The position numbers were made by a program, and so were the translations under genes. Of a DNA stretch of 40,640 bases, positions 34,301-39,330 are shown piece by piece; within the stretch, counting starts at the first letter, position 1; each line of letters opens with the position of its first letter. The notes under the pieces are model-generated. The model searched no databases. It was not told where the DNA came from and saw only the letters and a list, made by a program, of their open reading frames with translations. The DNA comes from a virus (taxonomy: Duplodnaviria > Heunggongvirae > Uroviricota > Caudoviricetes), in IMG/VR virus record IMGVR_UViG_2541047698_000019; one strand, 5' to 3'.

Positions 34301-35305
34301 ATGCATCGTATAGACACGAAAACCGCGCAGAAGGATAAGTTCGGCGCGGGTAAGAACGGTTTTACCCGTGGTAACCCCCAGACCGGCACGCCTGCTACCG
34401 ATCTGGATGATGACTACTTTGACATGTTGCAGGAAGAGCTTTGTGGCGTGGTGGAGGCATCCGGTGCCAGCCTGGAGAAGGGGCGAAACGACCAGTTGCT
34501 TACCGCGCTTCGTGCGCTGCTGTTAAGCCGCAAGAATCCGTTTGGTGATATCAAATCGGATGGCACGGTGAAAACGGCTCTCGAAAACCTTGGTTTGGGA
34601 GATGGAACAGGAAGACTCATTGCAGTGTACCGGATTGACACATCCCGGCAAATTACACTGCCGAAAGATGCCAGGTTTGTTGTGGCAGATATGATTGGTG
34701 GCGGAGGCGGCGGTGGCAGTAACTCCACGACCGTACAACCCGGATATGCGTCAGCAGGGCAGGGCGGGAATTCAGGTAGCCGTGTGGTAGCAAAATTCAC
34801 AGTTGATGCCAGTCAGAAAATTAATATTACTATTGGCGCAGGTGGTGCGGGGGGCGTGACAACTCCCGCAACCGGAGCTAATGGAAGTGACGGTGGGGCT
34901 ACGATTATCGACGGTATTACAGCTACTGGTGGGCGAGGTGGAGCTAAGGGGGCAGCATTTAATGTTCTGCCAACCGGCGGGCCTACAGCGATTCAGAATG
35001 CTAATAACACCATTCCTGGAGGAGCAGAATTGATAGCACAGCATCTCGGGTATGGTGGAAGCTCTGGATTTCTGTTCTCGGATAAAAATGCGATTGGCGG
35101 GAAAGGGGCTGACTCTGAATTCGGAGTGGGCGGTGTGGCAGTCGGAATTAGCTCAGGAGTCAATGCATCGACGGGAAAAAATGCCACAGGTAATGGCTCT
35201 GGCGGAAGCGGCGCGGTCTCTATTTATGGATCAGGGTCTACCGGGGTGTCTATGTCGGGTGGAGCAGGGGCTGACGGTCTGGCGATTTTGTGGGTATACG
35301 GCTAA
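34301..35305 (+). CDS. tail fibre protein with glycine-rich C-terminal region
   Basis: 334 aa. Conserved N-terminal attachment region then Gly/Ser/Ala-rich repeats. Confidence 0.7.
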
Positions 35306-35700
35306 TGAACAGATACGCATTAATTAAAAACAATATTGTTGTTAATATCGTTGTTTGGGATGGCGCAGGAGATATGTTTGCCGATTTTAAGGCAGTTAAT
35401 ATCTCTGGTGTTGCAGTTGATATTGGATGGATCTATGACGGAAATAATTTCACAGCCCCCCCCGAACCTGAGAAAACTAAAGAACAGTTAATCCAGGAAG
35501 CAGAACTCGAAAAAGAAGGGCGCATACGTGCTGCAAATGATTTTATTAACAGCAAGCAGTGGCCCGGTAAAGCGGCTATTGGTCGTCTGAAAGGTGACGA
35601 ACTGGAGCAATATAATTTGTGGCTGGATTATCTGGACGCACTGGATGCTGTAGATACTTCAACTGCACCAGAAATAGACTGGCCTCAGCAATCAGAATAA
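35305..35700 (+). CDS. tail fibre assembly protein
   Basis: ORF 35290-35700 trimmed to the ATG of [10 protein letters not shown]. Confidence 0.6.
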   Translation: MNRYALIKNNIVVNIVVWDGAGDMFADFKAVNISGVAVDIGWIYDGNNFTAPPEPEKTKEQLIQEAELEKEGRIRAANDFINSKQWPGKAAIGRLKGDELEQYNLWLDYLDALDAVDTSTAPEIDWPQQSE

Positions 35701-35727
35701 AAATATGGGGCAGCGCCCCATATTTCT
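35701..35727. terminator. bidirectional rho-independent terminator
   Basis: aaa-atatggggc-agc-gccccatat-ttt between the convergent tail-fibre-assembly (+) and acyltransferase (-) genes. Confidence 0.7.
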
Positions 35728-35736
35728 CGTTGACTG

Positions 35737-36783
35737 TCATATTAAAGCTTTTCGTAAAAGTGTCTTGCCGATTAAAACACCTCTTCGCTCTACAAGCTTG
35801 TGCGCAAAATAACAAACTATAAATAACAATAATAATATTTGAATGTTACTATTGATGTATTTAATTCCGATTTTATTAACTACTAATAACAAAGAGTCCC
35901 AAATCCAGTTATGAAATAAGTACACAGCATAAGTCATTTCAGATAGCAAATTGCATGCTTTGGATTCAATGAATCTATCTTTAAATAACCACGAACAAAG
36001 AAAAATAACAGTTCCTGTGAATGCGTAGTTGTAGTGCCCCCAGAATGGGTTTATTTTTTCAATGAGAGATAAATGAAGATAGAACATAGTTACGATGGAT
36101 ATTAAAGCAACAATCCGATTAACTAACTTATGCTCTGTAAGGTACACTACTACACCTATAAACAAAAATGGCGTATACAAGGTGAAGTAAGCATTATGAA
36201 AATCCTTCGCTACAGGGAAAGGATTAATGGTGGATATAAATAATGATATAAAAAGTAGTAGAACTGTTAAAACGTTTCCTTTATTTATGAGTCCGACTTT
36301 TTTAACCAAACCCATAAACACATAGAACAGCATTTCTATTCTTAACGTCCATTCAACACCAGCCAATGAAAGAGGTGTGTTAAAGAAATCGCCTATAAGC
36401 AATAATCTAGGTATTATTATGCTCAGAGGTGGAATGTTTCCACCATTATAGTATTGGATCAACATTTCAGCTAAAACAGCAAAAATATAGAGTGGGTATA
36501 TTCTAAATATTCTTTTTAAATAAAATTCAAAAGTTGCTTCTTTTTGTAGTACGTGGGTGATGATGTACCCTGAAACAAGAAAGAAGATCACAACCCCCAT
36601 TGCACCACCGAAACTGGCATCTGCTAGTAATCCGTAAAAAAGCCTCAGTGTAACGTGGTTACTTGGATCGTTCGCCAACGAAGATAAATCTTTGTTGAAC
36701 TTATGACCTAACACCACAAGGGAGAACGCAATTACACGCATGTAATCTAAAAAAAGAATTCGACGATTGTTCATGATTTTCAT
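35737..36783 (-). CDS. acyltransferase family 3 membrane protein (O-antigen acetylase, Oac-like)
   Basis: 348 aa polytopic membrane protein with the family-typical N-terminal FLDYMRVIAFSLVVLGH region. Very AT-rich. Confidence 0.75.
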   Translation of the reverse strand: MKIMNNRRILFLDYMRVIAFSLVVLGHKFNKDLSSLANDPSNHVTLRLFYGLLADASFGGAMGVVIFFLVSGYIITHVLQKEATFEFYLKRIFRIYPLYIFAVLAEMLIQYYNGGNIPPLSIIIPRLLLIGDFFNTPLSLAGVEWTLRIEMLFYVFMGLVKKVGLINKGNVLTVLLLFISLFISTINPFPVAKDFHNAYFTLYTPFLFIGVVVYLTEHKLVNRIVALISIVTMFYLHLSLIEKINPFWGHYNYAFTGTVIFLCSWLFKDRFIESKACNLLSEMTYAVYLFHNWIWDSLLLVVNKIGIKYINSNIQILLLLFIVCYFAHKLVERRGVLIGKTLLRKALI

Positions 36784-36858
36784 TTAATTTATTGAGTTGT
36801 GATCATTTTATAGCAACTAACCATTGTTAGCTATGCTGTCACCTTGTAAACAAGATGG

Positions 36859-37185
36859 TTATGTGACATCACCGTCGATCCAGTCCTCCCACCACTGCAT
36901 CATTTCTCTGCGCTTATCGAGATACTGAGCATGGTTATAAATCCAACGCACAGATCCGCCGTTGGCATGCGCCAGTTGAGCTTTAATGACTTTGCGACGC
37001 AACTCAATAATCAAGAGCATGGAGTCAATCATCCAATCATCAATTGATCGAGAATTGAAGTGGTTGTTGAGACAAAACTGAGACACACAAAGCCTTGCAC
37101 TTGATTGCAAGGCTTTGGGCTCTTCTGTGGGGGCTACATGTCTGAAGAGCGTTGTGCCGTATTTGTGACATGCATATAACAACAT
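36859..37185 (-). CDS. hypothetical protein (doubtful)
   Basis: 108-aa ORF with no convincing RBS and no family recognised. May be a remnant. Confidence 0.25.
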   Translation of the reverse strand: MLLYACHKYGTTLFRHVAPTEEPKALQSSARLCVSQFCLNNHFNSRSIDDWMIDSMLLIIELRRKVIKAQLAHANGGSVRWIYNHAQYLDKRREMMQWWEDWIDGDVT

Positions 37186-37266
37186 AATGCATCAACTTTC
37201 TGTTTGTGCCATCAGCTATGGCTTAGTGAATGCAGTTAATGCTTGCTAGAATGATTGGTGCTACAG

Positions 37267-37293
37267 ATTCGTAATGCGAAGGTTGTAGGTTCG
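37267..37293 (+). other. tRNA-Thr-like fragment (anticodon-arm to T-arm segment), not a functional tRNA
   Basis: ATTCGTAATGCGAAGGTTGTAGGTTCG closely resembles the corresponding part of enterobacterial tRNA-Thr (thrW, from memory), but the flanking sequence cannot form the acceptor, anticodon or T stems. Confidence 0.4.
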
Positions 37294-37452
37294 TCCCCCT
37301 TTTCAGTACTACCTAAATCAATAAGTTACCTAACTTTCAGTTATGACAGAAAGATATATATGCCAAGTAAAGTATAGAGAAACTGTCAAAGCAATAAAGG
37401 CTGGTGCTCCGTGTGTGGCGGCTGATGTATAGACATTTATGCAGATGAAACG

Positions 37453-37478
37453 AAAAAAAGCCCGCATCTGCGGGCTTT
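37453..37478 (-). terminator. rho-independent terminator on the minus strand
   Basis: On the minus strand: aagcccgc-agat-gcgggctt followed by seven U. Lies about 250 nt downstream of the dinI-like gene. Confidence 0.65.
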
Positions 37479-37594
37479 CATGTCATTAGGGCACTGCGGC
37501 TCCTTTGCGTATCCTTTTTGTTTCCTCACAGTCTGGTCGGTGCCCTGCTGAGACCAATAACTTCCAGTTTTTGTTAGTGTTATCCTTACACCGT

Positions 37595-37608
37595 CCAATC
37601 ATGATTGG
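37595..37608. repeat. 14-bp perfect palindrome CCAATCATGATTGG
   Basis: Read directly. Shares the CCAATC/GATTGG half-sites with the inverted repeat at 2210-2230. Confidence 0.5.
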
Positions 37609-37730
37609 TGGGCTGGCGGGAGTTGAAACTGCAGGCACGTCGTATGCAAGAACATGCTGTGGCTGGCTGCTTTACTTTCGATAGTGCGAGTATTGAATGA
37701 TTTCCAGCCGTTACCGATTTTACGTGTTAA

Positions 37731-37979
37731 TTAGTGAACAAACCACTCGTCAGCAGATTCCCAGGTATCTTTCAGAGTCTCCTGAACAAAAGTTTTTACA
37801 GAATCCTTATCTGCGGTGCGTGTAACAGAAAGGCCATCGTTGCTGGTGGCTTTTACGATCACCTCTACATCATCATAACGTTTACTGATGCGTCGGGTTA
37901 ATTCTTCCTTTAACGCGTCCACAGCACCGGTTGGCATTTTAGTCATTTTTTCTTTGGCTATGCAGATTTCAATACGCAT
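37731..37979 (-). CDS. DinI-like DNA-damage-inducible protein
   Basis: 82 aa. [10 protein letters not shown]...[17 protein letters not shown] parallels E. coli DinI (from memory). AGAGGGA RBS. Confidence 0.8.
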
Positions 37980-37992
37980 AAAAGTCCCTCTA

Positions 37993-38040
37993 TACTGTGT
38001 TTGTATACAGTGTTATTTTTAACTGTATGGATAAACAGTG
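37993..38040. promoter_or_regulatory. two tandem LexA (SOS) boxes upstream of the dinI-like gene
   Basis: TACTGTGTTTGTATACAGTG and AACTGTATGGATAAACAGTG both fit CTGT-N8-ACAG. Confidence 0.65.
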
Positions 38041-39138
38041 TCAAGAGGTCTTATTTCTGCTCCTTTGGAGCTCTTCAAAACGATTATGTAAAGATTTCGG
38101 ATACAGTTCGGTATATACCTGCCATAGCACGTTTAATGAACGATGCCCTGTAACTTGGGCGACTTCCTCAATACTAAAACCAGCCTCAAATAAGCGACTT
38201 GCCCCTTCTCTACGCAAATCATGGTATCGCAGATCTTTAATACCTAATTTGCTTCTTACCCTCTGAAATCCCGCAGTAACAGAAGTGCTGTTATATGGAA
38301 AAATGAATTCCGATTTTTGGGGCTGTCGTTGGACGATATCCCAGGCTTCCCCAAGCAAGGCTACTTTCATGTGGTTGCCTTCCTTTTTGCGTGGATCTTT
38401 CCTGTCTCTTACGAGTATAGATTTTTGTTCTTGGTCGAGATCTTCCCATCGTAACCGGCATACTTCTCCGATTCGCATACAGGACCACACAGAAAATTTG
38501 AGGATATCAACGAACGGAATTTTTGAGCATTTATGAGTAGATCGTTGTTGAAGGCCTTCAATGAGCATGTCCAGTTCATCAGATGCTGGTCTACGATTAC
38601 GACGGTTTGATTTACCAATCAAACCAAGTTTAAGTAGATATGGACGAGCGCTTTTCGCTGGGTTTGATGTGTAATTAATTCCGTATACAGGTTTGGCTGC
38701 ATCCAGAACACTGCCAAGATAACTAACATCGTGGCTGACTGTTGCTGGACCTGCACCAGCGTTGTTTCTTAGCCTGCAATGTTCAATTACGTCATTTTCG
38801 GTCAGTTCGGATAGTTTGATCGCGGAGATGTCACTATCCATAAGCAGTTCCAGCACATATCTTTTAGTACGGCCTGCTTTACCTCCGGCATTTGGGTCAT
38901 TTAAATATTTGTGTAGTAAGTCACGGACTGTAAGTCCGTCAACTGCATTTGATGATGGAATGCCATATAGATCTAATTCCATCACTTTCTGTGTACCCCA
39001 TGTTTTGGCATGGGCATGTTTAGGGAATGTTTTGCTTTCCCTGTAAGTGATAACACCTTTTTCTTTGATAATCACATTACAGCGATAGCGTGGTGTGCCA
39101 TCGGATTTTAGTCGTTTCTCTATGTTATAGTACGCCAT
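38041..39138 (-). CDS. tyrosine integrase (dusA-associated integrase type)
   Basis: 365 aa. C-terminal catalytic region with R...H-x-x-R...Y pattern (HDLRR, GHRS, Y near the C-terminus). Adjacent to and divergent from dusA. Confidence 0.9.
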   Translation of the reverse strand: MAYYNIEKRLKSDGTPRYRCNVIIKEKGVITYRESKTFPKHAHAKTWGTQKVMELDLYGIPSSNAVDGLTVRDLLHKYLNDPNAGGKAGRTKRYVLELLMDSDISAIKLSELTENDVIEHCRLRNNAGAGPATVSHDVSYLGSVLDAAKPVYGINYTSNPAKSARPYLLKLGLIGKSNRRNRRPASDELDMLIEGLQQRSTHKCSKIPFVDILKFSVWSCMRIGEVCRLRWEDLDQEQKSILVRDRKDPRKKEGNHMKVALLGEAWDIVQRQPQKSEFIFPYNSTSVTAGFQRVRSKLGIKDLRYHDLRREGASRLFEAGFSIEEVAQVTGHRSLNVLWQVYTELYPKSLHNRFEELQRSRNKTS

Positions 39139-39226: not shown

Positions 39227-39330
39227 ATGCACGATAATCCTGAAACACAGAAAACTAATCAAACCAGCGTGATGCCTGAAAAAACTGGCGCTTACTGGAG
39301 TTCCCGGTTTAGCATTGCTCCTATGCTCGA
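39227..39330 (+). repeat. phage-supplied replacement 5' end of dusA (direct-repeat copy at the right junction)
   Basis: About 80 percent identical to 1320-1423. Identity ends in a shared ATGCTCGA, after which this copy continues as dusA and the left copy as phage DNA. Confidence 0.7.

Follow-up and report, generated by a model that had tools for sequence, protein, structure and literature searches.

Temperate phages of the kind considered here carry tail genes, a cargo gene, attP and the integrase gene in this order. It is standard in phage mosaicism that integration modules move between phages as cassettes whose junctions lie at gene or site boundaries, and the locus described below leaves this understanding unchanged. 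Functional attPs of thrW-integrating phages, such as SfX, SfV, HK446, HK542, mEpX2 and P22-like prophages, contain a perfect 46-nt 3' part of thrW that runs from the anticodon loop to CCA, and the HK446 record annotates its site as 'attP ... similar to thrW'. The ssrA-integrating phages include phage LLS, whose record annotates a 'tmRNA pseudogene' together with attP, and lambdoid prophages with a comparable arm at ssrA. In Sf6, the 3' end of int lies immediately upstream of the AT3 acyltransferase gene oac, and in P22-like genomes partial int pseudogenes stand beside attP. HK633 has an annotated attP of 81 bp, and dusA-specific integrases are known from prophages and genomic islands (Farrugia et al. 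2015, PMC4482086).

The window analysed here is a stretch of 40,640 nucleotides of virus DNA (IMG/VR record IMGVR_UViG_2541047698_000019; Caudoviricetes), in which we studied the interval 36784-37730. No credible intact gene is found in this interval. Its left neighbour is an AT3 acyltransferase gene (35737-36783, minus strand; PF01757), and its right neighbour a DinI-like gene (37731-37979, minus strand; PF06183), beyond which the dusA-specific tyrosine integrase (38041-39138, minus strand; PF00589) forms the current integration module. As with other dusA-specific integrases, it abuts the dusA 5' end, which is re-supplied by the phage; dusA runs from 39227 onward, so that the prophage is inserted in the 5' end of this gene. 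The module lies outside the interval with the relics and replaced the older modules. In the structural genes to the left, identity to the Shigella phage SfV is 97.5%, and the closest whole phage is Escherichia phage SKA5 (97.6%).

In our reading, to which we give a probability of about 85%, the interval holds a stack of non-functional remains, left as one integration cassette after another was replaced. Recombination with another phage would replace the integrase side of the module, while a cargo-side piece of the old module would stay, namely an attP arm with its core or, if the module was of the Sf6 type, the int 3' end. Layer 1, the leftmost, would be the stub of an IntS-type int from an argW-type module. 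Layer 2 would be a thrW-type attP arm and core with a decayed tRNA-restoring part, and layer 3 an ssrA-type arm consisting of the tmRNA 3' end, the trailer and a terminator. Layer 4 would be an HK633-type att-like segment that now moves with dinI, next to the working dusA-specific integrase. Each element belongs to a known class (thrW attP, ssrA arm, partial int, dusA-specific integrase), and the first three are present here as relics, not as working members. Alignments document the identities and boundaries of the pieces, the loss of the cognate integrases and the neutral-looking divergence; the order and number of the replacement events are tentative, given the few relatives sampled. Intact modules beside the same pieces are found in E. 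coli HCP4S3_I4 (intS with tRNA-Arg), in NZ_CP141750.1 (int and xis) and, for the ssrA arm, in E. coli Ecol_732 and LLS. In the literature searched, no description of such a relic stack was found.

Next to the acyltransferase gene, positions 36784-36858 (minus strand) form its intergenic leader, in which a weak sigma-70-like site (36850-36823; 9/12 promoter match) is no better than those in shuffled sequences. It is followed, from 36859 to about 36995 on the minus strand, by the 3' remnant of an integrase gene of the Sf6/HK620/IntS type, a pseudogene of about 43 codons and the stop codon. The translation of this stub, ...AQLAHANGGSVRWIYNHAQYLDKRREMMQWWEDWIDGDVT*, matches the C-terminus of Sf6 Int, and positions 36880-36987 are 92.6% identical to the int 3' ends of Sf6 and HK633. 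The full PF00589 catalytic domain of a tyrosine integrase, with its Arg, His and Tyr, is absent; only the C-terminal codons remain, and they give no Pfam match. The leader and the stub, compared over the wider stretch 36701-36987, are 96% identical to an SfV-like prophage of E. coli HCP4S3_I4, which carries the same acyltransferase, there split into two CDS, and then an intact intS and tRNA-Arg (argW).

The order of the stub and the acyltransferase gene is that of int and oac in Sf6. However, the window differs from Sf6 and the P22-like phages in that its stub is 96% identical to the intact intS of an SfV-like E. coli prophage, and its acyltransferase shares only about 24% identity with Sf6 Oac. 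A tblastn search of all phage records gave no match to the acyltransferase above about 30% identity, and on these two values the candidates Oac, OacB and OacC were rejected. An O-antigen-modifying role is plausible from the position of the gene. A similar, SfII-like context has been described for oacC (PMC4206707).

The same IntS/Sf6-type stub stands beside attP in P22-like thrW phages with a similar truncation point, and homologous stubs are annotated as "partial integrase" in RefSeq. For example, E. coli HS contains the same stub, a homologous spacer and a thrW attP, and the circular 47.9-kb P22-like genome NZ_CP141750.1 contains stub, spacer and thrW attP followed by an intact SfX-type int and xis. 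The combination of stub and thrW arm is therefore an older block, which was not made in this prophage. More generally, blocks of at least two layers are common to P22-like and lambdoid phages; therefore the layers were not all laid down here, and they spread by homologous recombination.

The largest ORF of the interval (108 aa; 36859-37185, minus strand) runs through the stub, and a real small protein gene might be suspected here, because the frame is uninterrupted, begins with ATG and has the same orientation as the acyltransferase gene. However, the ORF is a chimera: only its last 43 or so residues correspond to the integrase C-terminus, without most of the catalytic domain, and the part before them crosses a conserved hairpin and P-arm DNA, where a 5-bp indel in the homologues breaks the frame. 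It belongs to no Pfam family, and RefSeq treats the homologous stubs as integrase fragments. We regard a protein-coding gene at this place as hardly credible, and a composite of leftover pieces remains the preferred reading of this ORF.

The second piece is an attP relic of the thrW type. Its P arm, of the SfX/HK446 type, covers 37017-37266 (plus strand) and is 82-83% identical to SfX, HK446 and the attR of Z142-1, the last being where a P22-like prophage of E. coli Z142-1 ends on the thrW side. The alignments with the thrW-type attPs extend from 37046 or 37070 to 37331 or 37341, with arm homology from 37017, and the distal arm (37017-37116) is 79% identical to the P arm of SfV, which lies in the gtrA-int spacer. 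Altogether, the window shares with the thrW attPs of SfX, SfV, HK446, HK542, mEpX2 and the P22-like prophages a P arm of about 250 bp (79-83%) with its hairpin, a core that starts in the anticodon loop at tRNA nt 31, the sequence TAAATCAATAAGTTAC and the placement between cargo gene and int. It differs from them by a degraded 3' part of the core, by deletions of 10 bp and 5 bp in the P arm relative to the functional copies, and by the lack of int and xis. The hairpin is a perfect 12-bp hairpin at 37088-37117, which is kept in SfX, HK446 and HK633. The HK633 copy follows int directly, and by analogy the hairpin is probably the former tI/sib-like terminator of the lost int, with lambda tI/sib as what we take to be its counterpart.

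The decayed core occupies 37267-37312 (plus strand). Its first part, ATTCGTAATGCGAAGGTTGTAGGTTCG at 37267-37293, corresponds to nt 31-57 of E. coli K-12 thrW, the tRNA-Thr(CGU) gene, from the anticodon loop to the T loop, and 26 of 27 positions are identical, with C48T as the only change. No other place in the window matches the 27-mer when up to 3 mismatches are allowed, and 100 shuffled sequences gave no match. The rest of the core, corresponding to nt 58-76, is degraded. In this tRNA-restoring part (37294-37312), 9 of 20 alignment columns differ, including a 1-nt deletion, compared with 35 of 258 (about 14%) in the rest of the homologous stretch (Fisher p=0.0012, post hoc). Hardly any change is seen in the anticodon-loop half of the core or in the 16 bp that follow the core, unlike in 37294-37312. 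Relaxed constraint, selection against thrW homology or a different source are possible causes of this decay, and the same derived state of the core, including the 1-nt deletion, is present in the homologous block of E. coli EC9682.

A tRNA-Thr gene was rejected, because the 5' half is missing and the T stem and the 3' strand of the acceptor are degraded. ARAGORN reported no tRNA and no tmRNA over the window, and the Rfam tRNA model gave no match even at E<=10. Another thrW 3' fragment that starts in the anticodon loop and results from site-specific integration is ptwF, found in E. coli K-12 at the right end of CP4-6. However, ptwF is an intact copy at a junction between prophage and chromosome, while the copy in the window is decayed, lies inside the prophage and stands beside a phage P arm. 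A ptwF-like junction copy was rejected as the source, since the 3' part of K-12 ptwF is intact.

After the core, a spacer at 37313-37341 (plus strand) leads up to the stop codon of the former SfX-type int and contains the 16-bp sequence mentioned above, which is conserved in SfX, SfV and HK446. The homology to SfX, HK446 and NZ_CP141750.1 stops 6-17 bp into their int CDS, and therefore the cognate integrase gene was removed from about its stop codon. Between 37341 and dinI no int is found, and the cognate xis is missing as well. Of the parts of a functional thrW-type attP, the homologous P arm is thus present, and the intact 46-nt core and the adjacent int and xis are absent.

The initial annotation had described the 27-nt segment as resembling tRNA-Thr and unable to fold into a tRNA, and had explained it as a relic attP left by a replaced integration module in a prophage with SfV-like layout and a dusA-specific integrase. 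The segment is real and does not fold as a tRNA, its surroundings align with the attP regions of SfX and SfV, and the layout agrees with the structural genes and the insertion in dusA. The explanation by a relic attP is correct for this piece but incomplete, as the thrW relic is one of four layers, besides the IntS stub, the ssrA arm and the HK633-type segment. Use of thrW by the immediate ancestor of the phage does not follow from it: in the closest relative that carries this acyltransferase, an intact IntS is found at argW.

Right of the thrW relic are 50 bp of unassigned filler (37342-37391), which match only prophages of the E. coli EC9682 type and contain no ORF and no RNA family. The stretch 37320-37460, which includes this filler, is complete in 19 of 5426 complete E. 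coli genomes.

The third piece is the arm of an ssrA-integrating phage on the minus strand. It is composed of a distal arm, a terminator and a tmRNA 3' trailer (37392-37605), followed by a relic of ssrA itself, its last 23 nt (37606-37628). Three sequences are homologous to 37392-37628: a lambdoid prophage's arm at ssrA in E. coli Ecol_732 (88.7% identity), the native 3' end of ssrA in strain E166 with the DNA downstream of it (88.6%), and the flank of the LLS attP (83%). An ssrA-type trailer and terminator of the kind that replaces the host 3' flank is thus found at 83-89% identity. The intrinsic terminator lies at 37479-37456 (minus strand), and the arm continues 65 bp beyond it. A 14-bp palindrome, CCAATCATGATTGG, at 37595-37608 is part of the tmRNA trailer and is present in all sources of the ssrA arm.

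The ssrA relic carries one deletion and one substitution, and the alignment of the ssrA 3' end reads TTTCAACTCCCGCCAGC-CCACCA against GTTCAACTCCCGCCAGCTCCACCA. A pattern search for ssrA at up to 3 mismatches missed the relic owing to the 1-nt deletion, and it was recovered by BLAST alignment. The tmRNA 3' end, CCAATCATGATTGG and the terminator occur in the same order and orientation, at 83-89% identity, in the LLS 'tmRNA pseudogene' and in the lambdoid arms at ssrA. In contrast to LLS, the window retains only the last 23 nt of ssrA, and most of the 20-bp crossover core GAATTACGGGCGCGGGTTCA is missing. No ssrA-type int follows, and neither a tmRNA gene nor a functional ssrA attP is present.

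The flank of ssrA deserves an observation in its own right. The native 150 bp 3' of ssrA in prophage-free E. coli (strain E166, L007:1501-1652; window 37454-37605), with the trailer palindrome and the terminator among them, are 83-89% identical to the attP arms of ssrA-integrating phages. Judged from these alignments, either the phages may have copied the host flank, or the host flank may itself be of phage origin.

The decamer ATGATTGGTG has two copies in the interval (37251 and 37601) and another at 34691. The copy at 37601 is the complement of the tmRNA CCA end and trailer, and that at 37251 belongs to the SfX-type P arm. By simple arithmetic, chance alone should produce about 0.4 repeated 10-mers in 947 bp, and the shuffle test for the individual pattern is post hoc. 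We rejected the decamer as a meaningful repeat, since its two local copies lie in blocks of unrelated origin and their number is at chance level.

The fourth piece, at 37629-37730 (minus strand), is an att-like segment of the HK633 (ykgJ/yagV) type, which forms the 3' flank of dinI and is 89% identical to the HK633 attP. The integrase beside the copy in the window is of the dusA type and not IntS-like. In SKA5, the segment lies downstream of dinI, and it also accompanies dinI in the other E. coli prophages sampled. As it travels with dinI, the segment could be no more than the 3' flank of this gene. SKA5 has the dusA int and dinI in common with the window and none of the left-hand relics: its homology to the window begins at 37625, the identity over 37625-38050 is 96.5%, and the SKA5 integrase is annotated immediately beyond.

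Segments of this type are also found elsewhere. In HK446 (L001:1501-1584), one lies just upstream of the phage's own functional thrW attP, so that stacked att relics exist in cultured lambdoid phages as well. Moreover, the ykgJ-ecpE spacer of E. coli Ecol_AZ162 (L009:2501-2661) matches window 37627-37788. This ykgJ-ecpE (yagV) region is the attB region of HK633-type phages and holds an 18-codon relic of the dinI 3' end (VQETRKGTRRPANEWFLH*) together with the att-like segment; with a dinI relic inside it, the attB looks like the scar of an old prophage end.

The blocks on the right are shared as a unit. From the decayed core to beyond dinI (37267-38045), the window is contiguous with lambdoid prophages such as that of E. 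coli EC9682 at 91.8% identity. The P arm left of the core is of the SfV type in the EC9682 prophages and of the SfX type in the window, and the arm type changes precisely at 37267, where the core begins on its left side. Such a switch fits recombination within a short shared identity as well as an Int-mediated exchange.

The second of these mechanisms leads to a different account, in which the fossil thrW core is a secondary, attB-like landing pad for the Int of co-resident phages, and module swaps are driven by Int exchange and not by homologous recombination. It would explain why the same decayed core and right flank are combined with different P arms in the window and EC9682, and the anticodon-loop half of the core with its left flank is indeed identical to functional attPs except for C48T. 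The crossover-proximal half of the thrW core is almost intact (26/27), so that a residual recombination activity is conceivable. The start of the ssrA relic, in turn, lies inside the LLS attP core, where a GCGG(G/T)TTC microhomology to the HK633-type segment occurs. However, homologous recombination in the shared 27-46 nt of identity would also place a breakpoint at the core, the remaining breakpoints fall at the ends of genes (the int stop codon) or within int and not at cores, and the region shown codes for no integrase of the thrW or ssrA type. We therefore regard the landing-pad mechanism as unlikely. It is equally doubtful that fossil att cores in general serve as portable pseudo-attB sites, with the thrW core half and perhaps the ssrA stub used for docking and for swaps of arms and modules. 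If this were true, the stack would both record and promote integrase-mediated switching of specificity from argW to thrW, ssrA and dusA.

A further alternative is that the region encodes a functional sRNA, or that it serves as a long regulatory 3' UTR of dinI co-opted from tRNA and tmRNA fragments. There is an SOS-box-like promoter region upstream of dinI, and the strong terminator about 250 nt past the dinI stop codon points to a long 3' UTR that includes the tmRNA 3' end. A weak match to Rfam STnc350 was obtained as well, at 29 bits against a threshold of 60. However, nothing in the interval exceeds the Rfam gathering scores, and the sub-threshold matches are of the terminator-hairpin type and far below these scores. 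Apart from the hairpin conserved in thrW- and HK633-type modules, folding is ordinary: the energy of the putative dinI 3' UTR equals that of shuffled sequences (z=0.0), and 37186-37490 on the plus strand gives z=-0.9. SKA5 does without the whole ssrA arm and keeps only about 105 bp after dinI.

The divergence of the relics points in the same direction. Compared with the EC9682 block, they differ by about 10-13%, which resembles the third codon positions of dinI (9 of 83) and not dinI overall (5%). This single pairwise comparison fits neutral drift of DNA that was left behind. Over the last 23 nt of ssrA, the window and EC9682 are identical (23 of 23), which could hint at constraint, the numbers being tiny. 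Taken together, a functional RNA appears very improbable, and leftovers of replaced modules remain our reading.

The initial annotation had proposed a possible sRNA or regulatory element on account of the terminator, the palindrome and the repeated decamer. All three features are present, the first two being inherited parts of the ssrA arm and the third a chance-level repeat; the proposal itself gains no support from the Rfam, folding and divergence results above. On sequence comparison, the terminator, the palindrome and the tRNA-like features stem from att-site relics rather than from an sRNA. The ssrA-derived terminator is the one element likely to matter today. From its position, it would now end dinI transcription and insulate the acyltransferase gene.

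A second copy of the prophage was found in a different genome, on IMG/VR contig IMGVR_UViG_2541047884_000011. Over 12.7 kb of phage DNA (26616-39327), the two copies differ at 2 sites, while 43 sites differ within 1.3 kb of the host dusA-pspG flank, the first of them at 39328. The contrast between 2 phage and 43 host differences indicates recent horizontal spread, in which the dusA module works and the relics ride along. The same comparison places the right boundary of the prophage before 39328, inside the dusA 5' end. The full arrangement is absent from the complete E. coli genomes in the collection searched. The fossil thrW core has no match in the GTDB species representatives, and its single match in IMG/VR is the second copy of this prophage.

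The interval is thus a compact record of how a temperate phage lineage changes its insertion site, in an SfV-like, possibly O-antigen-modifying prophage that was built from blocks common to P22-like and lambdoid phages and has recently been mobile via its dusA module. For annotation, 0.9 kb of seemingly empty DNA is explained, and the example cautions that neither the 108-aa ORF nor a tRNA fragment nor an sRNA should be annotated in this region.

Two minor features adjoin the relics. Between dinI and the integrase gene there are two LexA-box-like CTGT-N8-ACAG motifs (37995-38010 and 38023-38038), which suggest that dinI may be under SOS control. At the position of window 35290-37625, which comprises a tail-fibre assembly gene, the acyltransferase gene and the relic stack, SKA5 carries a DNA invertase and an invertible tail-fibre cassette (L013:2318-4424). 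Judging from this alignment, the whole cargo and tail-tip region appears to be exchangeable.
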